Below are positions 10,511 through 44,252 of a stretch of 44,252 bases of DNA, in pieces. Source of the stretch: Pirellulales bacterium. GTDB taxonomy: Bacteria; Planctomycetota; Planctomycetia; Pirellulales; JAICIG01. Position 1 is the first letter of the stretch. Each line of letters begins with the position of its first letter. The DNA is taken from the NCBI GenBank assembly GCA_036379195.1, contig DASVHB010000067.1, positions 1 to 44,252 of the forward strand, in the 5' to 3' direction. Made by a program: the position numbers and the translations under genes. The notes below the pieces were generated by a model, which saw only the letters and a list, made by a program, of their open reading frames with translations, ran no database searches and was not told the DNA's origin.

Positions 10511-10558
10511 TATGGGGCGCGCTGTTCGGCGGCTGCGCGAGTGGGCGCGCAATGCGGG

Positions 10559-16252: not shown

Positions 16253-19200
16253 ATGCCCCCAGACGTTTTGCGCGACTTTGCCAGGCAACTTTTTCCGTCC
16301 GACGTGACCACGCTGCCCGACGTGCTCGCTTGGCGCGCCCGCTGCCAGCCACACCAGCGGGCATTCACCTTTCTGGTCGACGGCGAGGAGCAGGAAGAGC
16401 AATGGACCTACGCTCAGCTAGACCGCCGGGCGCGCGCCATCGCCGAGGTGCTCATCGCAAATGACGCCGCGGGTGAGCGCGCGCTGTTGGTCTACGACGC
16501 GGGGCTGGAGTATATCGCCGCGCTGTTTGGCTGCCTCTATGCCGGCGTGGTGGCCGTGCCGGTCTATCCGCCCGACCCGTTTCGCATGGACCGCACGCTG
16601 CCGCGGCTGCAAGCTATCTTGGCCGACGCCGGGGCGGCCTGGCTGTTGGCGACACGCGAAACGCTCGACTGGGCCGGGCCGCTGTTTGCCAAGGCGCCGG
16701 GGCTGAAATCGTCGTTGGCGACGGACGAATGCCACGCAGCCGAGTGCCACGAAGCCGAATGCGCAGTGCGGAGTGCGGAGTGCGGAACAGAGGCCGACTC
16801 GCTGGCGATTTTGCAGTACACATCGGGTTCGACCGGCGATCCACGCGGCGTGATGATTTCGCATCGCAACCTGATGGCCAACCTCACGCTCATCCATCGG
16901 ATGGTCGATCGCGACGATGCGGTCGCCGTCTCTTGGCTGCCCGCCTATCACGATATGGGCCTGATCGGCGTCACGTTTCAGCCAGTTTTCAGCGGGCGGC
17001 ACGCCGTGCTGCTTTCGCCGGTGGCGTTTATGCAGCGGCCCTATCGTTGGTTGAATGCGATCTCACGATTCCGCGGCACAACGACCGCCGCTCCGAACTT
17101 CGCCTACGATCTGTGCGTTCGCAAGGTGAGCGCGGCGGAACGCGCGACGCTCGATCTGAGCAGCCTGGTGCTGGCGCTCAACGGGGCCGAAGCGGTCCGG
17201 GCCGACACACTGGATCGGTTCAGCGAAGCCTTTGCGCCGTGCGGTTTTCGCCGCGAGGCGTTCTATCCCTGCTATGGACTGGCTGAAGCCACGCTGATGG
17301 TCAGCGGCGGCGCCAAGAACGAGCTTCCAATCGTCAAATGGTTCGACGCCGCCGCGCTGGAGCACAATCGAGCGGAACCGCTTAGCACTGATCTCGCGCC
17401 CGAGGTAGCCCCCGGCCTTGTGCCGGACATGGTAGCCCCCGGCCTTGTGCCGGGCTTGTCTGGAATAACACCCATTACGCCGGCCGCAAGGGCCGGGACT
17501 ACGAGCCCGATCGCTGCATCGGACGCGAGGGCGGGGGCCACCCGGTTGGTTGGCAGTGGTCACGCGGCATGTAGCCAGCGCGTGGTAATCGTCGATCCGC
17601 GGACATTACAGCCATTGCCCGAGTGCCAGGTGGGTGAAATCTGGGTGAGCGGGCCGAGCATCGGCGAAGGCTATTGGAACCGGCCGCGCGAATCGGTCGA
17701 AACCTTCGCCGCGACGTTGCCAAACGGTGACGGGCCGTTTCTGCGCACCGGCGACCTCGGTTTTCTGGACGGTGGCGAGCTGTTCATCACAGGGCGGCTG
17801 AAAGACCTCATTATCCTGCAAGGCCGCAATCATTATCCTCATGATCTTGAGCAAACCGTGGCTGGCTCGCATCCGGCGCTAAAGCTCGACGGCGGCGCGG
17901 CTTTCTCCGTCGATGTTTCCGGGCAAGAGCGGCTGGTCATCGTGCAAGAAGTGATGCGTCCGCGCAAAGTCGATCTGCCAGCGGTTGCCGAGACCATCCG
18001 CGCGCGCATCGCCGAATCGCACGGTGTCGCCGCTTCGGCCATTTGCCTTATTCCCGCCGGTACGCTGCCCAAGACGTCAAGCGGCAAGACACGGCGGAGT
18101 GCTTGCCGCGAGTTCTTTCTGGCGGGTTCGCTGGGCGCGGTCTTTGAGTGGTGCGAAGAAGAGTGGCGGATGGACGGTGAGGAATCAGCAGCAGAGGCCG
18201 TCTCCAAATTGACAGCCCCGCCGAACACGCCGACCGAGTGCCGATTGGCGCAGATTTGGAGCGACGTGCTCGGGCTCGATCCGCCCGTAGGTCAGGCTTT
18301 CCAGCCTGACAGCGTGGGTCTTGGGCAAAGTCAGGCTGGAAAGCCTGACCTACGGCACTGCGACATCCACACCAGCTTTTTTGACGTCGGCGGCCAATCA
18401 TTGCTGGCGTCGCAGTTGGCCGCGCGGATTCAAGCCGAGTTTGGCGTTGAAATGCCGATTCGCGTGCTGTTCGAGTCGCCGACGATTGCTCGGCTGGCCG
18501 CCTGGCTCGATGGCGCCGATCGGCAAATGCCTGCGGCTGATCTGCCGCCCCTGAACCGCGCCGACCGGGCCGCGCCGCTGCCGCTGTCGAGCTTTCAAGA
18601 ACAACTGTGGTTTTTGGAGCAGCTTGAACCGGAGCCACGTTATCTGCTCTCGGCCACGATGCGGCTGCGTGGGCCGCTCGATCGGGCGGTTCTCGAACGA
18701 AGCCTCAGTGCCATCGCCACGCGGCACGAAGCGCTTCGCACCGTGTTTTGTGAGCGCGACGGTCTGCCATTTCAGGTGCTACGCGACGTAGGGTGGGCCG
18801 ACAACGTAGCTCCGACACTCCGTGGCGGAGATCTCGGGTCGCCCTTGGCGACCGCGGTTCTCGTCACGGAGTGCCGGGACTACTTTGATCTCTCTCATGG
18901 CCCTTTGTTGCGCGCTTCGCTGGCTTGCATAGATGCCAACGAGCATTTGCTGACGCTGACCATTCATCACCTCATCTGTGATGGCTGGTCGCTGAGCATC
19001 TTTCTTGAGGAACTTGCCGCGCTGTATCACGCTGAAGTCACTCGGCAGCCGGCGAATCTTCCGCCAGTGCCGCTACACTACGCCGATTTTGCCGTCTGGC
19101 AACGGCGCTGCCTCGCCACCCAGCACGTTCAACGGCAGCTCGACTATTGGAAGCAGCAACTCGCAGACCTGACGCCCTTAGAACTCGCTACAGATTTTTT

Positions 19201-22200
19201 GCCAGCGCGGTGGCCGGGGCAGAGCCTAAGCGATGCCCCGGATGTTGCCAGCAGGGGCATTGCCGATTCCGCAGTTCTGAGAGAGAACAAGCCGACTTCC
19301 TATCGCGGCGCCGAGGAGCGGTTCACGATCGGAGAGGAACTAACCGACGCGCTGGCCAGCCTCGGCCATCAACATGATGCGACGCTTTACATGGTCTTGC
19401 TGGCGGCCTTCCAAAGCCTGCTGGCGCGTTGGACTGGCCAACACGACGTGTGCGTCGGCTCACCGATTTCTTACCGGCCGCGCCGCGAGTTCGAGCGCTC
19501 GATCGGATATTTCGTCAATACGCTGGCGCTGCGCACCGATTTATCGGGCGATCCCAGCTTTCGCGAACTGTTGGCGCGGGTGCGCGAAACCGTGTTGGCC
19601 GCTTTCACGAACGCCGATGCGCCGCTGACCGCCATTGTCGATGCCTTGGCGCCGCAGCGGGCCGAAGGCCGCTCGCCGCTTTTCAACGTGATGTTTGTCT
19701 TTGAAAACCTGCCCTGGCAAGGCGACGACGCCGCGGGCCTCTCGATCGGCGACGTGAAAATCGACCATTCGCGAATTGGCGGCTTTGATGTGGCACTGGT
19801 CGTCGAACAACAGGCAGCCAGCTTGAACGCTTCGGTCATTTACAATGCCGAGCTTTTTGAGCCGGCCACCATCGAGTCATTTTGCAACGCGTTCAAGCTT
19901 TTGTTGGCGGGCGTGGCCGCTCAACCCGGTGCCCCGGTAACTTCGCTGATGCTGGCCGACGAAGCGTCGCACGTCTTCCACCCGCCCGCTGCCCCGCTGC
20001 AAAAATTATCTGCTCCGATCCATGATCTGGTTTCCGAGCAAGCCAACCGCGCGCCCGAGGCCACGGCCATCGTTCATGGCGATCGGCAGATCACGTATCA
20101 AGAGCTTGAGCGGCGCGCGGACCAGTTAGCCCACTACCTGCACGCGCTAGGCGTGACGCGCGACATGCCGGTGTCAATTTTTCTGGATCGCTCGATCGAG
20201 ATGGTGGTGGCCGTGCTGGCGGTGCTTAAGTCGGGCGGGGCCTATGTGCCGCTCGATGCCGCCGAAAACAGCGAACGGTTGACGGCGATGCTCGACAACG
20301 TCGCGGCACGGGCCATCATTACCACCAGCCGCACCGCCGATCGCTTGCCGCATCACCGGGCCGAAGAAATCTTGCTTGACGCCCATGCGGAGTCCATCGC
20401 GCAAGCGCCGCGGCAGCCGCTGGCGGCGGGGATCGGCCCCGATAACCTGGCATACATTATCTACACGTCAGGCTCCACGGGTCGCCCCAAGGGGGTGGAA
20501 GTCACCCACGCGGGGCTGGCCAATCATGCTTGCGCCATGGCGTCGCTGTACGAGCTTGGCCCAAGCGACCGAGTGCTGCAAATTATTTCGCCCGCTTTCG
20601 ATGTGGCCGCCGAGGAGATCTTTCCCACGCTTCTTCGCGGAGGCGCCTTGGTGCTTGGTCCGGCGACGAACGAACTGACCGGTCGGGCAATCCTCGATCA
20701 GTGCCGGCGGAGCCGCGTATCGGTGGCCCACATCCCCCCGCCGCTTTTGCAGCAGTGCTTACTGGAGTGGGAAGCCGCCGATGCGCCGCTGTTCGACCAT
20801 TGGCGGGTGCTGGTGGTGGGCGGCGAGCCACCGCGTACCGAGATGCTCAACCAATGGCTGGTGCTTGCCGCCGGACGCGTCCGCCTGTTGCACGAATATG
20901 GCCTGACCGAAACGACCATCACCAGCCTGGTGTATGAAGTGCCGCGCAGTGTTACGGCGTGGCCCGAAAACCGCCGCCTGCCGATTGGCGCACCCATCGC
21001 CGGGGCCGAGGCTTGGGTGCTCGACGCGCATCGGCGGCCTGTGCCGGTCGGAGCGCCGGGCGAGCTCTACTTGGGCGGCGTGGGACTGGCGCGCGGATAC
21101 TATCGACTCGACGACCAAACAGCCGAGCGGTTTGTACCGCATCCGCTTTCGCAACAGCCCGGTGCGCGGCTTTATCGCACGGGCGACCTCGTGCGTCGCC
21201 GCGCTGATGGCGATCTGGAGTTTTTGGGCCGGATCGACGAACAAATCAAGCTTCGCGGCTGGCGCATCGAGCCGCGGGAAATCGAACGAGCGATCCTTGC
21301 GCATCCCGCGGTGGGCCAGGCGGCCGTCGTCGCCCGCGAAGACGCGCCCGGCGCCAAGCGGCTGGTGGCTTATGTGGTGTCAGCCAACGGCGAAATGCCC
21401 TCGCCGCAAGAGCTACGCCAGTGGCTGCGCGGCAAATTGCCCGAACCGATGGTTCCCTCGGCGGTGGTGCGTCTTGCGCATCTGCCGCTCAACCGGCATC
21501 ATAAGCTCGACGTGGCCGCGTTACCGGCGCCCAGCGCGTGCCCGGCCGAAGCGAACGGCGAGGCCATATCGTTTGCCGCGCCGCGCACCGCCTGCGAACA
21601 GCAACTGGCAACGATCTGGCAAGAGATCTTGAATCTTCCGCGCGTCGGCATTCACGACAACTTCTTCGAGCTGGGCGGAGATTCGATTCTCAGCATTCAA
21701 GTGGTGGCGCGGGCCCGGCAAGCGGGGCTTTCTTTCAATCCGCGCCAGCTCTTTCAACACCAGACCATCGCCGAACTAGCCGCGGCGGAGGGCACCGGTC
21801 CGGCGGTGACCGCCGAGCAGGGCGAAGTGTCGGGCGAAACGCCGCTGACGCCCATTCAGCATTGGTTCTTGGACAGCGATCCGATTGACCCGCACCACTT
21901 CAATCAGGCCGTGATGCTGCAAGTTGACGATCGCCTATCTGCCGACGTGCTGGCGGCGCTCGATCATCTGGCATCGCATCACGACGCCTTACGACTGCGG
22001 TTCGCTCGTGACGAACATGGTTGGCGGCAGTGGCACGCACCGGTCGCGGGAAGCTGGTCGCTGGAACGGTTCGACTTTTCGCAGTTACCCGCCGACGAAC
22101 AGATCGCGGCGCTCGAACGCTCGGCCTCGGCGATGCAGGGCGGCCTGCATCTGGAAAACGGTCCATTGGCACGGGCGGGCTGGTTCGATCTGGGCCCGCG

Positions 22201-23242
22201 CGGGCGGCGGCTGCTGTTGGTGGTGCATCACCTGGCGATCGACGCCGTTTCATGGCGAATGTTGCTCGATGATCTGGCGTCGCTGTGGATGAGACTAAAC
22301 AACGGGGAGTTGCCATCCTTGCCTCCCAAGACCACTTCGTTTCAGCATTGGTCGCATCGCCTGGTTGAATACAGTCAATCGACGGCCATCGCGGCGGAGC
22401 TGCCCTACTGGCGCGCGCTTGCCAACGCCGAAGCCGGCTGCCTGCCACGCGATTTCGCAGGGGACGAAAATCTGCAAGCTTCGCTCGAGATCGTCTCGGT
22501 CGTCCTCGACCAAGCGCGGACCGCGGCGCTCTTGGAACGCGCCAACACACCCTATCGCACCCATGCTCCCGAAATCTTGCTGGCGGCGCTGGCCCAATCG
22601 CTAGCCCAGTTCATCGGCCAAAGCTCGATCTTGATCGATATCGAAGGGCATGGCCGGGCGGCCTTGTTCGACGACGTCGATCTGTCGCGCACCGTCGGCT
22701 GGTTCACGGCGGGCTATCCGGTGTTGTTCGATGCGCCGCTCTACTTGCCGCCCGGCACGCTGTTGCGTCGCACCAAGGAAACTCTGCGTCGGGTGCCCGG
22801 CGAAGGAGTCGGTTATGGCGTGTTGCGATACCTTTCGCCCGACGCCGCGGTGCGCGAATCACTCGCCTCGCTGCCGAGGGCGGAAGTGGCCTTCAATTAC
22901 CTGGGCCGCTTCGACGGAGCGCTGGACGAACGATCGTTACTTGCCCGAGCTGTCGAGCCGTCTGGCCCGCTGCGCAGTCCACGAGCAGAGCGCCGCCACC
23001 TGCTCGAAGTCAACCTATTCGTCAGCGGCGGGCAACTATCGATCGAAATCGGTTTTAGCCGCGCCATTCATCGCCGCGAGACCATCGAGAGATTCGCCGC
23101 CGACTACCACGAGCGGCTGGCGGCGGTCATCGACCATTGCCTCTCGCCGCAGGCCGGTGGTTTTACGCCGTCCGACTTTCCGCTTGCCAAAACCGACGAG
23201 CGAGAACTGGAAAGAATCTCGCAGCTTTTGGGCGATGCCTAG
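16253..23242 (+). CDS. non-ribosomal peptide synthetase NRPS-1: FAAL - T - C - A - T - E (one amino-acid module, lipo-initiation, no release domain)
   Basis: This is a single 2329-aa ORF. FAAL hallmarks are FTFLVDGEE..WTYAQLD, LEYIAALFGCLYAGVVAVPVYPP and YTSGSTGDPRG (16817-16837). The N-terminus is paralogous to that of NRPS-2. Carrier 1 is FFDVGGQS (Ser codon 18398-18400). The C domain has HHLICDG (18965-18985). The A domain has YTSGSTGRPKG (20462-20494), HEYGLTE, YRTGD and KLRGWRIE. Carrier 2 is FFELGGDSI (Ser 21683-21685). The E domain has PLTPIQHWF, HHLAID (22226-22243) and EGHGR..LSRTVGWFT. Domain borders are approximate. Confidence 0.9.
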   Translation: MPPDVLRDFARQLFPSDVTTLPDVLAWRARCQPHQRAFTFLVDGEEQEEQWTYAQLDRRARAIAEVLIANDAAGERALLVYDAGLEYIAALFGCLYAGVVAVPVYPPDPFRMDRTLPRLQAILADAGAAWLLATRETLDWAGPLFAKAPGLKSSLATDECHAAECHEAECAVRSAECGTEADSLAILQYTSGSTGDPRGVMISHRNLMANLTLIHRMVDRDDAVAVSWLPAYHDMGLIGVTFQPVFSGRHAVLLSPVAFMQRPYRWLNAISRFRGTTTAAPNFAYDLCVRKVSAAERATLDLSSLVLALNGAEAVRADTLDRFSEAFAPCGFRREAFYPCYGLAEATLMVSGGAKNELPIVKWFDAAALEHNRAEPLSTDLAPEVAPGLVPDMVAPGLVPGLSGITPITPAARAGTTSPIAASDARAGATRLVGSGHAACSQRVVIVDPRTLQPLPECQVGEIWVSGPSIGEGYWNRPRESVETFAATLPNGDGPFLRTGDLGFLDGGELFITGRLKDLIILQGRNHYPHDLEQTVAGSHPALKLDGGAAFSVDVSGQERLVIVQEVMRPRKVDLPAVAETIRARIAESHGVAASAICLIPAGTLPKTSSGKTRRSACREFFLAGSLGAVFEWCEEEWRMDGEESAAEAVSKLTAPPNTPTECRLAQIWSDVLGLDPPVGQAFQPDSVGLGQSQAGKPDLRHCDIHTSFFDVGGQSLLASQLAARIQAEFGVEMPIRVLFESPTIARLAAWLDGADRQMPAADLPPLNRADRAAPLPLSSFQEQLWFLEQLEPEPRYLLSATMRLRGPLDRAVLERSLSAIATRHEALRTVFCERDGLPFQVLRDVGWADNVAPTLRGGDLGSPLATAVLVTECRDYFDLSHGPLLRASLACIDANEHLLTLTIHHLICDGWSLSIFLEELAALYHAEVTRQPANLPPVPLHYADFAVWQRRCLATQHVQRQLDYWKQQLADLTPLELATDFLPARWPGQSLSDAPDVASRGIADSAVLRENKPTSYRGAEERFTIGEELTDALASLGHQHDATLYMVLLAAFQSLLARWTGQHDVCVGSPISYRPRREFERSIGYFVNTLALRTDLSGDPSFRELLARVRETVLAAFTNADAPLTAIVDALAPQRAEGRSPLFNVMFVFENLPWQGDDAAGLSIGDVKIDHSRIGGFDVALVVEQQAASLNASVIYNAELFEPATIESFCNAFKLLLAGVAAQPGAPVTSLMLADEASHVFHPPAAPLQKLSAPIHDLVSEQANRAPEATAIVHGDRQITYQELERRADQLAHYLHALGVTRDMPVSIFLDRSIEMVVAVLAVLKSGGAYVPLDAAENSERLTAMLDNVAARAIITTSRTADRLPHHRAEEILLDAHAESIAQAPRQPLAAGIGPDNLAYIIYTSGSTGRPKGVEVTHAGLANHACAMASLYELGPSDRVLQIISPAFDVAAEEIFPTLLRGGALVLGPATNELTGRAILDQCRRSRVSVAHIPPPLLQQCLLEWEAADAPLFDHWRVLVVGGEPPRTEMLNQWLVLAAGRVRLLHEYGLTETTITSLVYEVPRSVTAWPENRRLPIGAPIAGAEAWVLDAHRRPVPVGAPGELYLGGVGLARGYYRLDDQTAERFVPHPLSQQPGARLYRTGDLVRRRADGDLEFLGRIDEQIKLRGWRIEPREIERAILAHPAVGQAAVVAREDAPGAKRLVAYVVSANGEMPSPQELRQWLRGKLPEPMVPSAVVRLAHLPLNRHHKLDVAALPAPSACPAEANGEAISFAAPRTACEQQLATIWQEILNLPRVGIHDNFFELGGDSILSIQVVARARQAGLSFNPRQLFQHQTIAELAAAEGTGPAVTAEQGEVSGETPLTPIQHWFLDSDPIDPHHFNQAVMLQVDDRLSADVLAALDHLASHHDALRLRFARDEHGWRQWHAPVAGSWSLERFDFSQLPADEQIAALERSASAMQGGLHLENGPLARAGWFDLGPRGRRLLLVVHHLAIDAVSWRMLLDDLASLWMRLNNGELPSLPPKTTSFQHWSHRLVEYSQSTAIAAELPYWRALANAEAGCLPRDFAGDENLQASLEIVSVVLDQARTAALLERANTPYRTHAPEILLAALAQSLAQFIGQSSILIDIEGHGRAALFDDVDLSRTVGWFTAGYPVLFDAPLYLPPGTLLRRTKETLRRVPGEGVGYGVLRYLSPDAAVRESLASLPRAEVAFNYLGRFDGALDERSLLARAVEPSGPLRSPRAERRHLLEVNLFVSGGQLSIEIGFSRAIHRRETIERFAADYHERLAAVIDHCLSPQAGGFTPSDFPLAKTDERELERISQLLGDA
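16727..16787 (+). repeat. degenerate 15-nt repeats ending in perfect (AGTGCGG)x3, encoding ECHAAECHEAECAVRSAECG inside the NRPS-1 FAAL domain
   Basis: The 15-nt units are gaatgccacgcagcc / gagtgccacgaagcc / gaatgcgcagtgcgg, followed by agtgcgg x3 in total (16765-16785). The paralogous position in NRPS-2 reads LSVSPGDWTPVAV and has no repeat. Confidence 0.8.
17404..17503 (+). repeat. duplicated 23-nt unit (27-nt period) plus a degenerate inverted copy, in frame in the NRPS-1 FAAL domain
   Basis: ggtagcccccggccttgtgccgg occurs at 17404-17426 and again, identical, at 17431-17453. The reverse complement of 17481-17503 (cgtagtcccggcccttgcggccg) is a degenerate third copy. The element encodes EVAPGLVPDMVAPGLVPG...AARAGTT. 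NRPS-2 lacks about 45 aa at this position. Confidence 0.8.
18287..18353 (+). repeat. perfect 24-bp inverted repeat (each arm itself a hairpin), in frame inside carrier domain 1 of NRPS-1
   Basis: gtaggtcaggctttccagcctgac (18287-18310) and gtcaggctggaaagcctgacctac (18330-18353) are exact reverse complements with a 19-nt spacer. Each arm contains gtcaggc-N-gcctgac. The element encodes VGQAFQPDSVGLGQSQAGKPDLRH between VLGLDPP and CDIHTSFFDVGGQS. Confidence 0.9.
18788..18873 (+). repeat. composite element: family A half-site plus nested hairpins, in frame in the NRPS-1 C domain
   Basis: gtagggtgggcc lies at 18788-18799. The outer arms are cactccgtg (18816-18824) and cacggagtg (18865-18873). The inner arms are ggtcgcc (18837-18843) and ggcgacc (18847-18853). 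The element encodes VGWADNVAPTLRGGDLGSPLATAVLVTEC upstream of the FDL..GPLLR motif. Confidence 0.8.
19216..19265 (+). repeat. family C REP-like copy, in frame in the NRPS-1 C domain
   Basis: ggggcagagcctaagcgatgccccgg matches the intergenic copy 10371-10396 at 25/26. It encodes GQSLSDAPDVASRGIA. Confidence 0.8.
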
Positions 23243-23997: not shown

Positions 23998-24165
23998 CGC
24001 CAGCCTCCTCGAAGAAGTTCGATGCCTACGCTCAGTATAACGGGGCCGGCGCGACGGCAGTAGCCGCGACGTGCAACGGATTTTTGGCCGCCTGTTGAAA
24101 CCATCGCTTGTAACGCGGAGGCCGATTTTCTGCACTTTCTTGTAAAAACAGCTTGGCGCGTTAGG

Positions 24166-25958: not shown

Positions 25959-25998
25959 GACATTTATCACCATTGGTGGTAAAATTACCACATGGTGA
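25957..25998 (+). promoter_or_regulatory. near-consensus sigma70-type promoter (TTGACA-17-TAAAAT) with nested palindromic operator, overlapping the start codon of the AbiEi-like gene
   Basis: The -35 TTGACA is at 25957-25962, followed by a 17-nt spacer and TAAAAT at 25980-25985. The inner palindrome is gtggtaa (25976-25982) with ttaccac (25985-25991). The outer arms are tcaccat (25967-25973) and atggtga (25992-25998). The ATG at 25992 lies 7 nt after the -10, which implies a leaderless transcript. Confidence 0.55.
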
Positions 25999-27134: not shown

Positions 27135-27931
27135 TAAAACCGTTTGACAACGCGGTGGCCGCAAGCCGTGCCGTACTCATCGAGGCGATGGGAGTCCTTG
27201 GCAGATTGCATTCGCACCTCGTCATCATCGGCGGCTGGGTACCTGAGTTGCAAATACCCGGCAAAGGACACCCCGGTTCGCTCGACGTAGACTTGGCAGT
27301 TGATACTCGATCTTTGCCACCGGGGCCATACTCAACAATACGCCGATGTTTGGTTGATGCGGGATATCAGCAAGGAAACATGCCGAGCGTTTTTTTGCGC
27401 CAGATTCCGGGAACGTCGGGACCGTTTCAAGTCAAACTCGATTTGGTTTGCGCCGAGCCAGCTACCGCAATGGAACCTGAGACCGGGCTGCGCGTGCAGG
27501 ATCTCATGATCCATCCGCTTCGCGGGATCGGAATCGCGCTTGATTCGTGCGACGAAGTCCGCATTGATGGCGAGCGGCCCGATGGCGCCTCTGACGCCGT
27601 CGTGGCGCGCATCGCAACCTTAGAAGCATTCATTTGCATGAAAGCGTTCGCGATGGCCGAACGTCGAAAACCCAAAGACGCGTATGACGTTTACTTCTGT
27701 CTGCGACACCGCAACCTCGATCAGCTTTCCACCGCGATCAACTTGATCAGCAGCCAAAGCATCGTACGCGAAGCGATTGACGTGTTGGCAGATAAGTTCC
27801 GCACAATAAACCACGCGGGCCCCATCGACGCCGCGACCGTTGCGCAGGAGCACGGTGATGATTACGAGCAATCGCGCCGCGGTGCGTTCGAACTCATGCA
27901 ACTTTTGCTCGAGCGCATCAAGAACGTTTAA
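27131..27931 (+). CDS. nucleotidyltransferase, AbiEii/AbiGii-toxin-like (DUF1814-type) family
   Basis: 266 aa. The NTase signature is IIGGWVPEL..HPGSLDVDLAVD (GG..x..S-x-D-x-D). A later acidic site is KLDLVCAE. The family-typical motif KPKDAYDVYFCL is present. The GTG start overlaps the upstream stop (gtga, 27131-27134). Confidence 0.5.
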   Translation: MIKPFDNAVAASRAVLIEAMGVLGRLHSHLVIIGGWVPELQIPGKGHPGSLDVDLAVDTRSLPPGPYSTIRRCLVDAGYQQGNMPSVFLRQIPGTSGPFQVKLDLVCAEPATAMEPETGLRVQDLMIHPLRGIGIALDSCDEVRIDGERPDGASDAVVARIATLEAFICMKAFAMAERRKPKDAYDVYFCLRHRNLDQLSTAINLISSQSIVREAIDVLADKFRTINHAGPIDAATVAQEHGDDYEQSRRGAFELMQLLLERIKNV

Positions 27932-30900
27932 GAGACGATTCGCTCCAGCCGCTCGGCCAGCGCGCGGACGTGCGGCTCGCGGAGCAAGGTCAGATGATTG
28001 CCGGGCAGCGATTCGATTTCGAGGCCGCCTTCGAGAAGCGATTTCCAGCCCAAGCTCGGATCGCGGCCGTTGCGTTCGGTGTGTTCTTCCGACCGCAAAA
28101 GCACCGCTTGAACCGGCGCTGGGCGGGGTCGATAGGCCAGGCCGGCACGAGCGTTGGCCTCAAAGACGGAGAGCAGGCGCCGAGCATCGGCGTCGGGCAG
28201 ATGGGCGGGCGCCAGGCCCGCCGCGGAGATTTGCGCGGTGAAATACCGTAGCCTTTCGTCGTCGCTGAGCGACTCAAGCTCGGCCAACGAACGGCGGTCG
28301 GCGGCGCCATACAAGCCCAACAAAGCCGCCATGCCGGCGTCGGGGGCCGCGCCGCCGACAGAATCGATGCCCGAGTCGATCAGAATCAGTCGCGGCTGCC
28401 GCTCGCCCGTCGCGGCGATCTGCCGTGCCATCTCGTAGGCCACGATGCCGCCGAATGACCAGCCGGCGAGCTGAAACCTCCCCGTCGGCAGTGCCGTGCG
28501 GAGTTGATCCAAATAATCGGCGGCCATGGCTTCGATTTGCTGGTGCGGATCGCCGCCGCTGAGGCCCCGCGACTGAATCGCATAGAAAGACTGGTCAGCC
28601 CCCAAATGACGGGCCAGCGCGTAATACGGAAACACCATGCCGCCGACCGGATGAATACCAACCAGGGGAATTCGCGTGCCGCCCGTGCGGATGGGCACGA
28701 TGCCCGGCGCGCCGTCGGCGCGGTTTCCGGCTGGTATGGTACCGTCGATGGCGGCTGCCAAGGCGGCGATGGTAGGCCGCTCGAAGAGCATTTGCGGCGG
28801 GAATATCCTTCCCTGCGCCGCGGCCAGCGACATCACCCGCACTGCCTGAATCGAATCGCCCCCCAACTCGAAGAAGTCGTCTTCGACGCCTACACGATCG
28901 AGCCGCAGCACGTCGCGCCAGAGGTCGGCCAGCAGACGCTCGGTTTCGGTGCGCGGCGCGCGGTGGCAAGCAGAGCGGCTTGATTTAGTGAGATCTGTGC
29001 TCGGCGATCTGTGGGGAACCGACTCCGTGGCGTCCTGGGCGCTGACGCGCGAGGTCGAACCGCCCTCCACGGAATGCCACGGATTCTGTTCGCTACAGAG
29101 ACATGGCAGTTCGCTCAATCGGCGCTGGCCGCTGTTCAGGATACATGCCAATGTTTCTTGATAGTCGGCCGCAAGTCGCTCGATGTCCGCGAGCTCAAAC
29201 CTGCGGGCATCGTAATTGATGCGCAGCGCGATCTCGTCGCCGGCGGAAACCACCACATTAAGCGGAAAATTAGTTTGCGAGCGGCTCTCGATTTCACTCA
29301 ACCGCAAATGGCCCAACGTCGCCTCCCGGTTCGCCGGCGCGCGTTCAGTCGCCGGGCGCAAGGCGGCGTGGGCCGAGCGAAGCGCGGCGTCGATCGGATA
29401 GTTTTCGAACACCCAGAGGCTTTCAAACAGCGGCACGCCCGGCGGCAATTCCGACCAGCGGCGAATGCTGGCCAGCGGCGTCTGCTCGTGATGCCGCGTC
29501 TCGGCCAACTGCCCTTGCAACGACCGAAGCCAATCGACCACGAACGATTCGCGCGGCAGCCGAGCCCGGACGGGCAACGTGTTAATGAACAACCCGACCA
29601 TCGAATCGGCGCCCGCCAGCGTGCCTGGCCGGCCCGCCATGGTGGTGCCATAAACCACGTCGTCGCTGCCCGCATGGCGGGCCAACACCAGTGCCCAGGC
29701 GCCCTGCAAGAGTGTATTGAGCGTAATTTGGTGCCGGCGCGCAAACGCCGCGGCCGCGCGAGTGGTGTGACGGTGAATGGCAAAGTGGGCCTCCGCGGAT
29801 CCCGGTGCAATATCGGCTGCTGCCGTAGCACCGCCCGCACCAACCCGACGCGCAAGCGAGGCGCGCCGCATTTCAGCCTCGCTTGCGCTTCGGGTTTGTG
29901 TTGATTCGCCCGCTTCAAAACACAACCGCGTTGGCTCAGTGACACCGCGCAACAAGTCGCGCCAATAACGCTCGGCGCGCGAAACGTCTTGCCGCGCGAG
30001 CCAGGCAATAAAATCGCGGTATGGGCGTGAAGGTGGTAGTGGCAACGATCGCTGCCCGTGGGCGTGGCACTCGTACGCCAGCATCAGCTCGTTGAGCAGC
30101 AGCGGCAACGACCAGCCATCGAGCAGCAGATGATGGTGTGTCCAAACCAGCCGCCACTCGTCCGCCGATAGGCGAATCAGCTTCAGCCGCAGCAGCGGCG
30201 CGATGGCAAGGTCGAACCCGCGCCGTCGATCGTCGTGCAGCAGCGTTTCAAGCCGCGCGGCCTGTTCGCGCTCGCTGTACTTCGACCAGTCGTCGTCCTG
30301 CCAGGGAAGCTCGACATGCCGTTGAACGATGGCCAGCGGCTCGCGCAACCCTCCCCACTCCAGCGCCGTGCGCAGGGCGGTGTGTCGTTCGATCACCGTG
30401 CGCCAGGCCTGGCGAAACGCGGCGACATCGAGCGGGCCGCTCAACCGGCAAGACAACTGCTCGATATACGCCCCGCCGCCGTGCACCTCGCTCGCGGCTT
30501 CGGCGGCCAAAGGCTGCTCGGCCAGGCTGTGATACAACATCCCCATTTGCAAGGGAGACAGGGGGTAAATGTCTTCAATGTCGCGGCCTTCGCCAACCAA
30601 GCGCGCAAGCGCGGCGTCATCGAGCCGAGCCAAGGGAAAGTCGCCGGGCGTGGCTTGCACCCGCGCGTCCGGCTGGCCCGACATCAACTCGCGCACGGTG
30701 GCCACAAACCGCGCAGCCACGCGCTCCAACGCCACATCGCGGAGCCTGTTGCGGCGATACGTCCACCGCAACATGAGCCGACCGTTTCTGATCTCCGCGG
30801 TGACCTCGATGAGATAGGGCCGCGGCGCCGCGGCATCCTGGCCGTCTTGGTCCCGATCGGCGGCAATCGTCAGCACTTGTGCCAAGTCATTGCCCCGAGA

Positions 30901-33900
30901 GTGCAACGCAGCGGGCTGCCCCATTTGACGGTGCTGCCCTAAATAGTTGAAGCAGATTTCCGCCGGCGAGCGCGGCACTTTCGTGTCGCCGTGCGAGAGG
31001 TACCGCAAGACGCCGTACTCAAATCCACGAGCGCTTGATTCGCGCAGCGACGGCTTGACCCGCAGCAACGATTCGCCCGGCGAGGCGGCGCCGGCGAAAT
31101 CAAGCCGCACCGGATAGAGCGACGTAAACCATCCCACGGTGCGCGACAGATCGACCGCCTCAAACCGACCGCTATCGCGGCCGTGGTGTTCGATGTCGAT
31201 CATCAGATCGTCGCCGGTCAGCGGCCGCAGCGCATGACCCACAATTGCCAAAACGAGGTCCTGAGTGGGCATCCGGTAGAGAGAGGCCAGCTCGCCCAGG
31301 GCGGCGGTTTCGTCGCTGCTGAGCGTTCGCTCGAAGGTGGCCGAAGCATGCTCATGGAATCCCTCGGCAAAATCGCATCGCAGACGGCCGGCCGGCGCGG
31401 CGAGAAGATCGTGCCAGTAAGCTTGGTGGGCTGCGAAGTTGTTCTGACGCGCGTAATCGGCCAGCCGCAACGCCCATTGCCGCAGCGAGGTGGTTTTGGG
31501 CGGCAGCCGCACCGGCTCTCGTGCCGCGAGTTGCCGGTATGCCGTCAACAGATCTTCCAAGATGATCCGCCAAGAAACCGTATCGACGACCAGGTGGTGA
31601 ATCGTGAGCAGAAGCCGACTGGCCCCATCGGTGGTGATGATGGCCGCGGCCACGAGAGGTCCCGATTCGAAGTCGAAGCGGGCGCGCAACCGGGCCAGCA
31701 AACGCTGCGTGTCAGCTTCCGCGGCGGCAGCGGAAAGTCCGCGTTGATCGGCCTGTTCAAGCCAGAAAGCCGTGGACAACACCTCGACGCCGGCATTGAC
31801 CTGCCGCCAGCCGTCGCCAGCGCGGTAAAGACGCAGCCGCAAGGCGTCGTGGTGGAGCACCAGCACGGTAAGCGCCTGCTCCAGCAGCGAGGCATCGATG
31901 GTGTCGGTCACTTCGACCAGCACTTCTTGGCTGAGAATCGTCGGGTGGGCGCTGCTCACCGATTCATCGGTTTCACCGAACGGCGCCGTGGTGGGCGATG
32001 CCCATCCTACGGTATCGAAAAACCACCGCTGAATGGGTGTCAGCGGAACATCGCCCATAACGATGCCTTGCTCCGCGTCGATGGCTGATGAGGCAGATGC
32101 GACGGCGGCCAAACCCGCGATGGTGGGCTGTTCAAACAACTGCCGCGGCGTGAAGAAAATGCCGCGCTGCCGGGCGTGCGAAACCACCGCGAGCGTTTGA
32201 ATAGAGTCGCCGCCCAATTCAAAAAAGTTGTCGTCGATACCCACTTGCTCCAGACCCAATACCTGGCGCCAGATTTCCACCAGCGCCTGCTCGGTTTCGC
32301 TGACAGGTTCGCGCGGGCCGTCAGACGAACCGCCGCCGTGGCGGGCCGGCGCGGGCAATGCCGCGCGATCGAGTTTGCCGTGAGCGGAGAGCGGTAGCTC
32401 ATCGAGCAGTATTAGGCTGGCGGGCGCCATGTAGCCTGGCAGTTGCGATCGCAAATACTCGCGCAAACCTGCGACGCTCACGTTGTCGCCCGCCGACACA
32501 ACATACGCAAATAGCCGCGGCTGCCCCGGCTGTTCCTCGCGTGTCACGACCGCGGCTTCGCGCACCGCGGGATGACGGCGGAGCACGGCCTCAATTTCGC
32601 CCGGCTCGATACGAAACCCCCGGATCTTGACTTGCTGATCGGCTCGCCCGAGAAATTCGAGTTGACCGTCGGGTCGCCAGCGCACCACGTCGCCGGTGCG
32701 ATAGAACCGCGCTTCGCCGACTCCCACTCCGGGCAAGTGCGTGCTTTCTCTAAGCGAAAGCCGATGATCGATGAACCGCTCGGCAGTCAGCTCCGGTTGG
32801 TTCAGATAACCGCGCGCCACGCCTGCTCCGCCCACATAGAGTTCGCCCGGCACGCCGATCGGCACGGGGCGGCCCCGCGCGTCGAGCACATCGACGCGCA
32901 CGTTCGGCAGTGGGCGACCGATTGGCGGGCGCGGCTCATTCGCTGGGCAATCGGCCGCGGTCGCACACACGGTGGTTTCCGTCGGGCCGTAGGCATTCAC
33001 AAACCTGCGGCCTTGGCCCCATTGCCGCACCAGCTCAGCTCGGCAGGCCTCCCCGGCTGAAATGATTAGCCGCAAGTCGGGCAACTCGGCCGGCGGCAGG
33101 GCCGCCAGAATCGATGGCGGCAGCGTGGCAATGGTCACCCGCCGATCGCGCAAAAGCTGCACGAGCGGCTCGCCCGGCAGCAGTGCTTCGGGCGAAGACA
33201 ACACTAGCGCCGCGCCCGACGCCAAAGCCAGCGAAATCTCCCACACCGAAGCGTCGAAGCTCAACGGGGCGAATTGCAGCACCCGGTCGTCCGTGGTCTG
33301 CAAAAAAAGATCACGCTGCGCGTGTGCCAGATTGGCCCAACTGCCATGCTCGACCGCGACGCCCTTGGGAATGCCCGTCGAGCCTGAGGTATAGATGACA
33401 TACGCCAGGTGATGCTCGGCGGCGCGGAGCGCGGGGTTGTCGGTGCTTTGCTGCGCGAGCTCGGCTGAAATCGAACCGAAATCAATCGGCGAACAAGCGC
33501 CAGTAGCCATTTCCGCCGGGGCATCGCCAAGGCTCTGCCCCAGCCACCGGGCGGATTCTAGACTTTGGATTTCGGATTTTCGATTGTGGCAGAGCACGAA
33601 CGCGGGCCGCGCATCGTCAAGCATGAAGCGCAGCCGCTCGTCGGGGTAGTTCAGGTCGAGCGGTAGATAGGCGCCGCCGGCTTTGAGAACTCCCAGCACC
33701 GCGACGATCATCTCCATCGAGCGCTCCAGGGCGATTGCGACGCATGTCTCAGGTCCCACGCCCCGCGATTGCAGATAATGCGCCAGTTGGTTGGCGCGCC
33801 GGTTCAACTCGCCGTAAGTCAGCAATTGCTCGCCATAGACCAAGGCCGCGGCATCGGGCCGCCGGGCCGCCTGCTCGGCAAATTGCCCGTGAACGAAGTC

Positions 33901-36900
33901 GGCGGGATAGAGCCGGGTGGTATCGTTGCCGGCAAGGGCGATCTGCCGCAACTCGTCGCGGCTGAGCAGTTCGATCTCATCGATCGGCGCGCCGGGCCGG
34001 TTGACGATCGAAGTGAGGAGCGTCTGAAAATGATTCGCCCAGCGGACCATCGTCTCGCGATCGAACAAATCGCTGTTGTATTGCCAGAGAGCCTCAATCG
34101 ACTCGCCCGTTTCGCGGAGCGAAAGCGTGAGATCGAACGGCGCCGCGCCGCTGGCCACATGCACCGGACGAAGCGATAGCTCAGCAAACGTCCGCTCCGG
34201 CAACGGCGAGTTTTGCAGCGCAAACATCACCTGGAAGAGCGGACCGCGGTCCAGTTCACGCTTGGGCTGCAAGCGATCGACGAGTTTTTCCAACGGAAGC
34301 TGCTGATGCGCGAACGCCGCCAGCGTGGTTTGCTTGACGCGCTCCAGAAGTGTCTCAAAGGTGCTCGTTCCGCCATCCGCCAGATCGACGGGCAAGACAA
34401 GCGTATTGACGAACAGGCCGATCAGATGTTCCAACTCGGGCCGCGTTCGTCCGGCGACTGGCGTGCCGAGACAAAATCGCTCCTGCCCCGATAAACGCCC
34501 CAACAGCAGCTCAAACCCCGCCAGCAAGGTCATGTAGAGCGTGGCCTCGCCGCGCCGGGCCAGGCGCCGCAAGTCATTGACCAGCGTGGCCGGTAAGGTC
34601 GAGACGACTTCACCCCCACGGCCACTGGCCGCGGCGGGGCGAGGCCGATCGGCCGGAAGCTCCAGCGCCCGCGGCATATCGCGCAGCGCCGCTTCCCAAA
34701 ACTCGAGGTCACTCTCTAAGGCGCCACCGTCGAGTGCTTGCCGCTGCCACACGGCATAGTCGGCATAGCGCACCGACAATGGAGCAAGCTCCGCGGTGCC
34801 GCCACGGCACCGCGCCTGATAGAGCGCTGCCAGCTCGCCGACCAAAATGCCGAGCGACCAACCGTCGGCGACGATGTGATGCAGCACCAGCACCAGGGCG
34901 TGCCTCCGTTCGTTCATGCGCAGTAGGCGCGCCCGCAACAGCGGCGGCGCGGCCAAATCGAAGGGCCTACGAGCCTCGACCCCCGCCAGCCGTTCCAACT
35001 CGGCAGTCTGCGCTTCGTCGGGCAAATCACGCAAATCAGACACCGGCAAATCGATCGTCAGAGGCGCAATCGCTTCTTGCACCAGACCATGGGCACGCTG
35101 CTCAAACCGCGTTCGCAGGATTTCATGGCGGTCGATCAGTTGCTGCAGTGCTGCCTGTAAAGCGTGTGCATCCAACGATCCGTCGAGCATGGCCGCCGCC
35201 GCGATGTTGTACATCGGGCTGGCGGGCGCCAGTTGGTTCAGAAAATAGAGCCGTTCCTGAGCGAACGAAAGCGGCCAGGGCGAGTCGTGCGCGGCGCCGG
35301 CGATCGGGCCAGACGCCGCACCCAGTTGTTGCTCGGCGCCCGCTTCGAGCCACGCCGCCAGCGACGCAATCGTCGGCGTCTCGAACAATCGCCGCAATGG
35401 CAGATCAATTTGGAACTGATCGCGCACCCGTGCCGTCACACGCATGGCGAGCAGCGAATGGCCGCCCAGGTCGAAGAAGTTGTCGTCGATGCCGACGTGC
35501 TCGACGCCCAGCAGCTCCTGCCAGATGGCGGTCAAGGCAGCTTCGGTCTCGGTCCGCGGGCTTCGGTGAGAGTCGGCAAGTGGCTCGCCAAGTCGCGCAA
35601 ACTGGGTGCTGACGTCGCCAACGCGGGCGGCAAGCGCCGAGCGGTCGAGCTTGCCGTGTGGCGAAAGTGGCAGAGTGGCGAGTTCGATGAACGAGGCCGG
35701 AATCATGTAGCCGGGCAAAACATCTTCCAGCCAGCTCCGCAGCGCTGGTATGTCGAGCGAACCCATGGCGCCAGCCGGCGAGTTGCCCTCGATCGAACTG
35801 CCTGGCACGATGAACGCGATCAAACGGTTCCCGCCCGAGGCATCTGGACAAGCCACCACCGCCGCCTGGCAGATCTGCGGATGCCGAAGCAATTGCGATT
35901 CGATCTCGGCCGGTTCGATCCGGAAACCGCGCAGCTTTACCTGTTGGTCGAGCCGGCCTAAGAACTCCAGCAGGCCATCGGCCCGCCACCGCGCGCGGTC
36001 GCCGGTTTTGTAAAGCCTCGCCTTGACCGTGATAAACCGTTCGGCGGTCAGTTCGGGCAGTTTCCAATACTCGCGGGCCAGGCCGTCGCCGCCTAGATAC
36101 AATTCGCCCGGCACTCCGACGGGCGCCGGCTGCAAGTTTTCGTCGAGCACGTAGGCTTGGGTATTGTCGATCGGCCGGCCGATAGGCACCGAACCATCCA
36201 GCGGATCATCAAGGCCGACTGTGTGGCAGCAAGAGAACGTCGTGCCTTCGGTCGGTCCATAACCGTTGATGAGCGTGCACTCGGGGAACCGCTCGACAAA
36301 CCGTCGGACGCGGCTGGGCGACAGCACATCGCCGCCGGCCAAGAGCCGTCGCACGCCGGCCAGCGATTCGAGGTCTTCATCGACCAGCGCATGAAACAAC
36401 GCGGCCGTCAGCCACAAAACCGTCACGCGATGGTTGTCGATCAGCTTGCCGATCTCTGGCGTGCCGGGCGGGGCGATGGCCAGCGTAGCGCCCCGCGCCA
36501 AGGCGCCCCAGATCTCGAAAGTCGAGGCGTCGAACGAACTCGGCGAAGCGTGCAGAAAGACATCATGGTCGTCGATGGGGCAATAGTTCATGGGCCATAC
36601 CAGCCGGACGATTGCGCGGTGCGGCACCGCGATGCCTTTGGGCCGGCCCGTCGAGCCGGAGGTGTACATGAAGTAAGCCAAGTTCTCCGCCCCGGCCAGG
36701 GGCTGCGGGTCGTCGGACGGCTGAAGGGCGATCTCGTCGGCGGCGAGAGAAAGATCGAGCGATTTTGTATTCTGGATTCTCGATTCTGAATTGTTGCTGA
36801 GGATGAGCGCCGGATCGGCATCGGCGATGATGTCGGCCAAGCGTTGAGCCGGGTTGTCAAGATCGAGCGGAACGTAGCAACCGCCCGCCTTCGAGACAGC

Positions 36901-39900
36901 CAGCAGCGCGACGATCAGCTCGATCGAACGCTCCAACAGCAGGCCGACGCGCGTCTCGGCACCAACGCCCAACGATCGCAGGTAATGCGCGAGCTGGTTT
37001 GCCCGGCGGTTCAATTCGCCGTAGGTCAGCGACTGATTGCCAAAGAGCAGGGCGATGGCTTCGGGGCGCCGCGCGGCCCGCTCGGCAAATAGCTCATGCG
37101 CGCACTGCTCGCGCGGGTAATCGCAGGCGGTTTTATTCCAATCGATCAGCATTTGCCGGCTTTGGTCGGCGGTGAGCAGCGGCAGGCGAGCGATCGACGT
37201 TGTTGGGTCATCGGCGATCGCCTCCAGCATCGTCTGAAAATGTCCGGCCCAGCGGATGACGGTTTCGCGATCCAAAAGGTCGCTGCTGTACTCCCAACTG
37301 GCTTGCAATCCGTCCATGGTTTCGCGCAGCGAAAGCGTTAAATCGACCTTTGCTGCGCCGGTGGTGATCTCCAGCGGGCGAATGCTCATGCCCGGCTCAT
37401 CGAACGCCGGCCATGGTGTGTTTTGCAACGCGAACATCACCTGAAACAGCGGCGTACGCTGAGTGTGTCGCTCGGGCTGAAGATGTTTGACCAGGTATTC
37501 GACCGGTAGTTCCTGGTGGGCGAAGGCGGCGAGAGTGGTTTCTTTGACACGCCGCAGCAGCGCTTCAAAAGTCAGGCCCGTATTCGCGGTTTCACCAACC
37601 GGGGTTTCCGTACCGACTGCATGGTCGCGGAGATCGATAGGCAGGACGAGCGTATTGACGAACAGTCCGATCAGGCTCTCCAGCTCGCGGCGCAAACGCC
37701 CGGCGACGGGTGTTCCCAGACAAAAACGATCCTGGCCGCTCAATCGTCCCAACAGCGTCTCGAACGCCGCGAGCAACGTCATATAGAGCGTCGCATCGTG
37801 TTTGCGGCTCAGTTGTTCGAGACGGTCGACCAGGCGGCGCGGGATGACGGTGGTCCATTGGCCACCCTGCCCGCTGGGTAAGGGCGGTCGCGGACGGTCT
37901 GTCGGAAGCTCCAGCCATTGCGGCACGCCATCGAGCGCCTTCGTCCAGAAATCGAGATTTTTCTGCCGCGCTTCGCTCGCACCGGCGCCGCGTTGCCAGA
38001 CGGCATAATCGGCGTACTGCACGGTCAACGCGGGCGCCGGCAGGTCGCGGCCCGCGGCGTGCGCCTTGTATCCGTCGAGCAACTCGCGCAGCAGCAGACC
38101 GAGCGACCAGCCATCGGCCACCAGGTGATGCAGCACCAGCACAAAGACATGTCGCTCGTCGGCGAGCCGCACCAACTGCGCGCGAGCCACCGGTGCGGCG
38201 CCCAGATCGAACCGCTGGCGTGCGGCGGCCTGTGCCAGCCGTTCGACCTCGTCGCTTTGCTCCGGCGGCGCTAAATGAGCAAGATCAACGATCGGCAGAG
38301 GCAACTCCACCGCGTCGGCGATGGTGTGCACAGGCCGCCCATCGCGCTGGAAAAACCGCGTGCGCAGCGATTCGTGCCGGGCCACAAGCCGCTTCAGGCT
38401 GGCGCGCAAAGCATCGATGTTGAGCAAGCCGGTGAGCTCGACTGCCAGCGGAATGTGGTAGCAGGGACTGTCAGGCTCAAGTTGTTCGAGAAAGAACAAC
38501 CGCTCTTGCGCGAACGACAGGGGCATTTCGTCCTGTCGATCGGCGATCGGAATGGGCCATGCCCAGGTCGGGTCATTGGTGCGCGAATCGCAATCGAGGG
38601 CGGGCGAGTCCGAGTCGATCGCGCGGGCCAGACGCGCAATGGTTGGTTCCTCGAACAATCTGCGCAGCGGTATCTCGGCCCGGAAGCGTTCGCGCAGCCG
38701 GGTCATAAGCTGCATCGCCAGCAGCGAATGTCCGCCCAGATCGAAAAAGTTATCGTCGATGCCCACCCGCTCGACGCCCAGCAGCTCGGCCCATAGATCG
38801 GCCAACGCCGCTTCGGTGCTACTGCGTGGGGCGACATAAGCGTGCAGGGCGACTGCGGCGCCGGTTGGCTGGGGCAGTGCGCGGCGATCGAGCTTGCCAT
38901 GAGGCGTCAATGGCAGCGCGTCGAGCGTCACGAAGGCGGCCGGCAGCATATATTCGGGCAACCGTGCCTTTAGCCAATCGCGCAGCTCGGCGTGGCCATT
39001 CTGTTCGCCGTGTCGTGGCACGATGTAAGCCACCAGGCGTTTGCCGCCCGGGCCGTTCTCGCGGGCCACGACCGCCGCCTCGCGCACATGCGGATGCCGC
39101 GCGAGATGCGTTTCAATCTCACCCAGCTCGATGCGGAAGCCGCGAATCTTGACCTGTTGATCGAGCCGCCCCAGATACTCCAACTCGCCGTTGGCGCGCC
39201 AACGCACGCGGTCGCCAGATCGGTAGAGCCGATGGTCGCCATTCACATCGCGCTCGCGCGTGCTTTCGCGGAGCGAAAGCCGACTTTGCTCAAAAGGGCT
39301 GGCGATGAATCGCTCGGCGGTCAGATCGGGCCGGTTGAGATAACCTCGTGCCAGACCCATCCCGCCGAGGTAGAGCTCGCCCGGCACGCCGATAGGCACC
39401 GGTTGTCTTTGTCCGTCGAGCACGAAAACCCGGCAGCCGGGCAGCGGCCGGCCAATGGGGCTCGCCGCCGGACGCAGCAGGTCTGCGCAGGTCAGCGGCC
39501 GCCAGGTGGAAACGATCGCGGTCTCGGTGATGCCATACATGTTTACCAGCAACGGCTTGGCATCGCCGTGCCGATCGAACCAGCCTGACAACGCGGCAAC
39601 GTCGAGCATTTCGCCCGCCAAGATCACCAGCCGCAAGGCCAGTCGCTCGGCGCCGGCGCCCGCTCGTTCATCGGACTGCATGAGCTGGTTGAACGCGGCG
39701 GGCGTCTGATTGAGCACGGTCACTTGCTCATCGATCAGCAATTGATGAAAGCTGTCGGCCGAGCGGGCGATGGCGCGGGGCACGACGACCAGCCGGCCGC
39801 CAAAGGCCAGCGCGCCCCACAGCTCCCACACCGAAAAGTCGAAGGCGTAGGAATGAAACAACGTCCAGATATCGCCGGGGCCAAAGTCGTAGAGCGGCCC

Positions 39901-44250: not shown

Positions 44251-44252
44251 GG

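Follow-up and report, generated by a model that had tools for sequence, protein, structure and literature searches.

How does a nonribosomal peptide synthetase (NRPS) finish its product when its last module has a condensation (C) domain, a carrier (T) domain and a thioesterase (TE) but no adenylation (A) domain to load that carrier? The question is raised by contig DASVHB010000067.1 of a Pirellulales bacterium (assembly GCA_036379195.1), a stretch of 44,252 nucleotides that was analysed whole and is called the window here. The window contains two convergent NRPS genes, NRPS-1 on the plus strand and NRPS-2 on the minus strand, and an original prediction, made from the letters of the window, held that NRPS-2 ends in such a C-T-TE module and that either its last building block is loaded in trans or its last C domain (C4) accepts a nucleophile other than a carrier-bound one. 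We confirmed the absence of the A domain with Pfam, with hidden Markov models (HMMs) of our own, by alignment, by tblastn and in an AlphaFold2 model. In our judgment the module is probably intact, with its carrier (T4) aminoacylated in trans, C4 adding a fourth residue and the TE releasing a lipotetrapeptide.

A termination module without an adenylation domain

Pfam searches of three pieces of the NRPS-2 protein, together with HMMs built from its relatives, gave the domain string FAAL-T0-C1-A1-T1-C2-A2-T2-C3-A3-T3-E-C4-T4-TE, where E is an epimerization domain. The layout that had been proposed for the end of the protein, with T3-E followed by a full C4, a short linker, a carrier and a TE, was therefore right, and the motifs quoted in support of it all lie where they had been placed, on the minus strand in the open reading frame (ORF) 27928..43959. 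The parts of NRPS-2 are as follows.

27928..43959, minus strand: NRPS-2, 5343 aa, a single unbroken ORF (from the ORF list, its translation, Pfam and the HMMs built in this analysis)
aa 13-560, 599-666 and 688-1133: first block, A-type FAAL, T and C
aa 1167-1692, 1714-1781 and 1810-2274: second block, A, T and C
aa 2280-2773, 2804-2871 and 2893-3343: third block, A, T and C
32365..33912, minus strand: A3, aa 3350-3865, opening the fourth block; no further A domain follows in NRPS-2
32098..32298, minus strand: T3, fourth block, aa 3888-3954, with FFELGGDSI and Ser3919
30655..32106, minus strand: epimerization domain, closing the fourth block, aa 3952-4435, with the motifs PIQRWFF and HHLVVDTVS
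aa 4461-4944, 5005-5071 and 5094-5337: end block, C, T and TE, as bounded by our own HMMs
29092..30579, minus strand: C4, aa 4461-4956 (Pfam, residues 862-1356 of a 1743-aa piece), DCL-type, with the N-terminal motif PLSPLQMGMLYH at aa 4466-4477, HHHLLLDG at aa 4608-4615 and the longer THHHLLLDGWS at aa 4607-4617
28948..29091, minus strand: linker between C4 and T4, aa 4957-5004, where an A domain of ~500 aa would usually be
28747..28947, minus strand: T4 carrier, aa 5005-5071, with FFELGGDSI and the phosphopantetheine Ser5036 at nt 28852-28854
27931..28680, minus strand: thioesterase, aa 5094-5343, with GWSFGG, Ser5168 at nt 28456-28458 and the His in PGNHLTL

A divergent A domain between C4 and T4 would have overturned the original prediction, and Pfam, our HMMs and tblastn detected none in that interval. 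Pfam found no AMP-binding domain past A3, even at an E-value of 0.1, in pieces that covered the interval, and assigned the last 900 residues to the Condensation, PP-binding and Thioesterase families. In a MAFFT alignment, the distance from the end of the C domain to the start of the carrier was 57 residues in the window and 40 in a stand-alone relative described below (P0084), compared with a median of 547.5 (range 533-643) in 40 relatives with the order C-A-T-TE. With A2, A3 and the FAAL as tblastn queries and a threshold of E<=10, adenylating sequence was recovered at the four A domains of the window (32350-33894, 35620-37104, 38872-40443 and 20018-21529) and its two FAALs (42205-43959 and 16334-18160) and nowhere else, so that no A-like sequence was found in any frame of 27931-32349. 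Alternative-frame ORFs overlapping the interval gave no Pfam hits, and on the strength of both searches we rejected an A domain hidden in another frame. A short string in the linker, GGSTS, was aligned by MAFFT under the SGSTG of the A3 core motif; tblastn gave no similarity there, and we take the match to be due to chance rather than a relic.

Structure prediction led to the same picture. The AlphaFold2 model of the 904-aa C4-T4-TE segment had a mean pLDDT of 80 with confident C, T and TE folds, and its C domain matched the isolated C domain of SrfA-C with a TM-score of 0.84-0.86. The linker of ~48-60 residues was poorly predicted (pLDDT 27-41 at query residues 518-558), and the model contained no cryptic domain. 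When compared with the termination modules SrfA-C, AB3403 and EntF, the model matched each of them with long gaps at their A domains.

Because NRPS modules are repetitive, a collapsed repeat might have removed an A domain from the contig during assembly. The chance of such an artefact is practically nil. Logan contigs from four soil metagenome runs belonging to four studies span the C4-T4 junction with no differences and no joints, two of them covering 27784-30006 (X1) and 27600-31200 (X2) with 0 differences each, and sampled 31-letter words of the junction were present at 64-100% in 20 runs on soil metagenomes that stem from at least 12 studies. A junction that is clean in four independent metagenomes is not a product of assembly. 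In the same runs, extra short contigs of higher depth overlap the region at 29351-29369 (X1, X3 and X4) and at 29877-29907 (X2 only, adjoining a palindrome in C4 that is described below).

Condensation domain and carrier of the end module

The attachment serine of T4 and the HHxxxDG motif of C4 are both kept, and by sequence E, C4, T4 and TE all have their catalytic motifs intact. The TE matched Pfam family PF00975 at 7.7e-29 and aligned collinearly with the TE of P0084. The E domain shares 35% identity with its counterpart ahead of P0084 on the P0084 contig; the NRPS-2 catalytic motif HHLVVDTVS (31582-31608, minus strand, aa 4118-4126) has Thr where Gly or Ala is usual (HHxxxDG/A-VS in the harvested set).

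C4 carries the N-terminal motif YPLSPLQMGMLYH, HHHLLLDG and recognisable versions of the remaining core motifs. The DCL motif YPLSPxQxGMLxH is matched at aa 4465-4477, and the E domain lies directly upstream. Its best matches among solved structures were D-donor C domains, those of McyB (2.4e-100), PvdL (2.5e-83), BacC of bacitracin synthetase 3 (2.9e-76), TycB (9.5e-64) and SrfA-C (2.5e-56), whereas the LCL domain of TycC matched at 2.1e-20. Modifying or dehydrating C domains (CmodAA) scored far below the DCL domains (AmbE, 5.6e-24; McyA, 2.5e-32), and an assignment of C4 to the AmbE/McyA type was dropped on the basis of these much weaker E-values. The concern that C4 might group with non-condensing or inactive C-like domains was likewise not borne out, the DCL matches being far stronger. 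Judged by its motifs and matches, C4 is a canonical D-donor (DCL) condensing domain, a type that fits its position right after an intact E domain.

The assignment bears on the other option left by the original prediction, in which C4 would use a free nucleophile (an amine, an alcohol or water) and release the chain itself. Terminal C domains that use soluble amines do exist, but C4 resembles internal DCL domains rather than terminal releasing ones, and a T4 with its serine and a complete TE directly downstream would then be superfluous. We consider this route very unlikely.

T4 has a feature that had already been singled out in the original prediction, the GGDSI motif, which is usually seen before E domains. 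Its rarity before TE domains held up in our own census, in which GGDSI was present in 246 of 249 carriers preceding E and in 3 of 142 (~2%) preceding TE, and none of the four other A-less carriers placed before a TE had it. T4, T3 and the second carrier of NRPS-1 share both GGDSI and a shortened loop before the (R/P)xQ(L/M)LF stretch, which reads PRQLF in T3 and in the NRPS-1 carrier. By motif T4 is thus an E-type carrier, yet the next domain in cis is a TE and not an E or dual E/C domain. Its identity is 48% with T3 and 51% with the second carrier of NRPS-1, not above the level of carrier pairs in general, and we rejected a recent duplication of T3 as its origin, 48% being what any carrier pair shows. 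The GGDSI of T4 may be left over from the way the module arose, or may mark contact with an E domain.

Relatives, precedents and the probable loading of T4

The proteins most similar to C4-T4-TE are stand-alone termination proteins of ~1320 aa with the complete order DCL-A-T-TE and 37-45% identity. Because they head the list of relatives, the A-less state looks derived, and the most likely origin of the module is a complete termination module, DCL-A-T-TE, from which the A domain was lost. A scan of genome contigs with C4-T4-TE gave one distant locus (L001, 33% identity), and a scan of metagenome contigs with the N-terminal FAAL gave 80 generic FAAL loci, the best at 58% identity, none from the same organism and none informative for C-T-TE. 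A profile search of a 1.84-billion-protein library was dominated by giant multi-C NRPSs, among which A-less cases became visible through the coordinates of the best-matching stretch. The A-less layout recurs in unrelated proteins, which are the following.

P0084: 859 aa, stand-alone DCL-T-TE, assembly GCA_964407285.1, 36% identity, collinear over 97% of the query
P0163: ...A-T-E-DCL-T-TE, assembly GCA_028284775.1
P0124: ...LCL-T-TE, from a 12.3-Mb genome
P0189: E-DCL-T-LCL
P0195: E-DCL-T
P0159 and P0082: both carry E-DCL-T

The modules of P0084 and P0163, which are uncharacterised, both follow a T(GGDSI)-E pair, as C4-T4-TE does. In the case of P0084 the pair belongs to the preceding NRPS on the contig (L002), which ends in A-T(GGDSI)-E and an acidic tail. 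They differ from the end of NRPS-2 in that their own carriers read GGHSL where T4 reads GGDSI, and in that P0084 stands alone as a polypeptide. The C domain of P0084 likewise carries an insertion, different in sequence, at the loop where C4 has one. The two A domains upstream of P0084 on its contig (1210-2694 and 4483-5967) are each 44.7% identical over 519 aa to A3, and their modules may be near-identical tandem duplicates.

Across the A-less modules the C-T linker is ~35-50 residues long and ends in the usual carrier start APRxxxE. In our HMM census of 271 proteins a C domain was followed directly by a T domain in 18 of 770 cases (2.3%), a recurrence that argues for a maintained design; 7 of the 18 stood after an E domain or an E-terminated protein, a ratio that is biased because the sample was chosen for DCL-likeness. 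No stand-alone A gene was found within ~2.4 kb downstream of P0084 or within ~10 kb downstream of P0163 and of P0124, which is compatible with these modules borrowing an in-line A domain.

Loading of A-less modules in trans is already established, and the T-E-C-T-TE string is already published (MgpD, PMC11411415; PMC8949500, PMC4357302, PMC12400406), so that the arrangement is less novel than had been supposed. In the lipopeptide synthetase SyrE the final [C-T-Te] has no A domain, and the stand-alone A-T protein SyrB1 serves it (PMC8949500); SyrE resembles NRPS-2 in its A-less C-T-TE end, and its last residue is supplied in trans. The gene for SyrB1, a dedicated A-T protein, lies next to syrE, and tailoring takes place on the carrier; there is nothing comparable in the 44-kb window. 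In Pseudomonas aeruginosa, AmbE of the AMB toxin pathway ends in C-T2-TE, and T2 receives L-Ala only when the A-T-C protein AmbB is present (PMC4357302), which is the mechanism that the original prediction had proposed for NRPS-2 with the A domain of NRPS-1 as donor. Unlike C4, a canonical DCL domain after an E domain, the C domain of AmbE is of an atypical dehydrating type with no E before it. In capreomycin biosynthesis the A-less CmnI has its carrier loaded iteratively in trans by CmnA-A1 (PMC12400406); CmnI is from an actinomycete, has no TE and, unlike the NRPS-2 end, is not a termination module, and C4 matched its fold (9uay) with a TM-score of ~0.8, normalised to the length of CmnI, at 21% identity. 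The WS9326A pathway also uses trans A domains (PMC7539972). The closest published domain string is that of MgpD from the megapolipeptin cluster of Paraburkholderia megapolitana, C-A-T-E-C-T-TE, whose second C domain clades with DCL domains (PMC11411415). In that string MgpD shares the terminal T-E-C-T-TE with NRPS-2, and it too belongs to a lipopeptide line; its own line is a PKS-NRPS-PUFA hybrid of the Burkholderiales, and the role of the C-T pair was left unexplained by the authors.

By analogy with SyrE/SyrB1, AmbE/AmbB and CmnI/CmnA, trans loading is the best reading of the module. Holo-T4 would be aminoacylated by the A domain of another module, C4 would move acyl-aa1-Val-D-Phe from T3 onto the aminoacyl-S-T4, and the TE would free the lipotetrapeptide by hydrolysis or cyclisation. 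The residue names come from specificity codes that we read by hand at motif-anchored positions (A1, DFWNIAMIVK; A2, DAFWLGGTFK; A3, DAWTIAAVCK) and compared with reference codes; on that footing A1 would be Thr-like, A2 would select Val, and A3, with a Phe-like code, would select Phe, presumably converted to D-Phe by the E domain. Within the window, the A domains that could act as loader are at 32365-33912, 35620-37104, 38872-40443 and 20000-21514. One possibility is A3, a candidate for loading T4 in trans or iteratively, or else a different A domain within NRPS-2, acting iteratively in the way that CmnA-A1 serves CmnI. Others are the A domain of NRPS-1 next to it, in the manner of AmbB, and a stand-alone A or A-T protein encoded beyond the window, in the manner of SyrB1.

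The original prediction had pointed to the A domain of NRPS-1, and the features that bear on that choice are these.

16253..23242, plus strand: NRPS-1, 2329 aa, FAAL-T-C-A-T(GGDSI)-E
20000..21514, plus strand: A domain of NRPS-1, aa 1250-1754, proposed earlier as the loader of T4

This A domain could act as an AmbB-like donor, and to that extent the proposal stands, but the pointer is weak, because the domain is already paired with a carrier and an E domain of its own within a complete FAAL-T-C-A-T-E line, which is no dedicated loader; A3, or an A domain beyond the window, is an equally good candidate. Its code, read by hand as DVEHVGEITK with two acidic positions, matches no code that we know of. 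At its C-terminus NRPS-1 has an E domain (PIQHWF, HHLAID) rather than a C domain, followed by a docking-like tail, TPSDFPLAKTDERELERISQLLGDA, and neither a TE nor a downstream C or DCL-starting partner for it is present within the window. NRPS-1 and NRPS-2 share ~40% identity, on which ground we rejected a recent paralogy, and an exact-sequence look-up of NRPS-1 returned no match on record. Two ORFs between the synthetases were also discarded as loaders, one (23251-24276) lipoprotein-like with a YHS domain, the other (24166-25905, plus strand) encoding 579 aa that are rich in Ala, Gln and Glu and coiled-coil-looking, with no Pfam family and with its status as a real gene uncertain.

Several observations weigh against trans loading. 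In the 44-kb window, which ends at 44252, upstream of NRPS-2, there is no gene for a stand-alone A or A-T protein, for MbtH or for a protein like SyrC, the shuttle enzyme of the SyrE/SyrB1 system. The identities of T4 to T3 (48%) and to the second NRPS-1 carrier (51%) point to no particular A domain. A close orthologue of C4-T4-TE was absent among 5.8 billion proteins, where the best identity was 45%. Finally, the sole characterised synthetase that we found with T-E-C-T-TE is MgpD, for which the authors' proposal gives the C-T pair no residue (PMC11411415).

That published proposal also favours a different reading, in which the module does not elongate at all. C4 would take the acyl-tripeptide, in its D configuration, off T3 and place it on the thiol of an empty holo-T4, or the chain would reach T4 in some other way, and the TE would release an acyl-tripeptide, with E-DCL-T acting as a stereochemical gate before the TE. 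The recurrence of A-less E-DCL-T in the window, P0163, P0189, P0195, P0159, P0082 and, after an E-terminated protein, P0084 fits such a hand-over, as does the finding that no stand-alone A gene was seen beside three A-less modules. On the other side, C4 resembles an ordinary amide-forming DCL domain, and A-less LCL-T-TE modules exist without a preceding E (P0124 and P0137), so that the link with E may stem from the choice of sample. Trans loading has direct experimental precedent, and we know of no C domain that catalyses a thioester-to-thiol transfer. We therefore regard a hand-over as unlikely.

A broader version, to which we give a rather slim chance, is that A-less E-DCL-T(-TE) is a distinct, recurrent module type with a function beyond simple extension, either as a D-selective gate that lets only the epimerised chain through to the TE or, at this locus in particular, as a shared termination module that serves NRPS-2 in cis and NRPS-1 in trans. 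The shared-module form is suggested by the end of NRPS-1, since its E domain and docking-like tail fall where E|C junctions split (as on the P0084 contig) and the window holds no DCL partner or TE for it. If the module were shared, the rare E-type signature of T4 could reflect contact with an E domain.

Inserted repeats, neighbouring genes and implications

C4 is ~45 residues longer than usual, and the bulk of the excess is an in-frame palindromic element.

29838-29900, in frame within C4 (aa ~4688-4708): palindromic element of ~63 nt with arms AACCCGAAGCGTAAGCGAGG
10449-10512, intergenic: second copy of the same element

The arms gave four matches where none was expected, and the hairpin has a predicted energy of -28.6 kcal/mol (z -6.05). 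In C4 the element adds ~20 residues (TRSASEAEMRRASLARRVG...) in a surface loop, within a stretch of low confidence in the model (pLDDT <50 at query residues 244-252 and 263-280), and recalls the in-frame palindromic elements of Rickettsia. Other repeats were seen in the synthetase genes. A hairpin repeat, GTCGSCTTTCGCTCCGCGAAAGC, occurs in frame three times in NRPS-2 (40483-40509, 39262-39288 and 32743-32769) and is translated as (S)RLSLRES; the copy in the C1-A1 linker extends into a longer palindrome (40454-40505), and the other two lie at the same loop before YR(S/T)GD in A1 and A3. An AT-rich repeat, GATTTTCGATTTTAGATTTTCGATT, is also in frame in variable loops of A3 (33561-33585), A2 (36761-36785) and A1 (40273-40311), where it reads KSKIENPKS, ESRIQNTKS and KSEIQSLES. 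A 58-nt element at 10358-10415, intergenic after a FadL-like gene, recurs with 83% identity in the C domain of NRPS-1 (19203-19260, ARWPGQSLSDAP...), and the A3 loop contains a related stretch at ~33484-33579 (ARWLGQSLGDAP...).

Insertions of this kind raise the possibility of decay, in which deletion of the A domain inactivated the end module and the line is either defunct or frees its product from T3 in some other way. The several mobile palindromic repeats in the gene, one of them within C4, would suit such a history, and so would the identity of the closest relatives, which are complete C-A-T-TE modules, and a mobile-looking AbiE toxin-antitoxin pair that adjoins the stop codon. Against it, the 16-kb frame is unbroken with all repeat insertions in frame, the catalytic motifs of the module are intact, and no remnant of an A domain is left; the layout is also shared by unrelated lineages, and the junction is found without differences in soils of several studies. 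Decay thus seems to us distinctly unlikely, and an intact module loaded in trans remains the reading that we prefer.

The AbiEi-like/AbiEii-like pair (25992-27931, plus strand) has a G+C content of 0.578, compared with ~0.64, and shares four bases (27928-27931) with NRPS-2 where the two stops overlap; by its looks, a mobile element was inserted here at the cluster's end. Adjacent genes at 10559-12509 (minus strand), ~4 kb upstream of NRPS-1, encode a cytochrome P450 and a SnoaL-like cyclase, which could be tailoring enzymes or unrelated. At the left of the window, hopanoid/squalene genes (an HpnE-like amine oxidase and two SQS_PSY) and ispH, together at 1286-5585, are syntenic with a Pirellulales metagenome-assembled genome (MAG; loci L085 and L086), and IspH itself (4587-5585) is 85-88% identical to Pirellulales MAG proteins. 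Synteny ends right after ispH, and the genes for the sensor kinase, FadL, SnoaL, P450, peptidase C25 and ComM, together with both NRPS genes, are absent from the MAG region; the NRPS region is therefore lineage-specific. The host is a soil Pirellulales planctomycete, and NRPS-2 is a fatty-acyl-primed lipopeptide synthetase.

For such a synthetase the length of the peptide can no longer be read off from the count of A domains: genome mining would call a lipotripeptide where the likely product is a lipotetrapeptide. The NRPS products of planctomycetes are almost unexplored, and this locus provides an environmental example of T-E-DCL-T-TE. A biochemical answer obtained here would carry over to several uncharacterised clusters.

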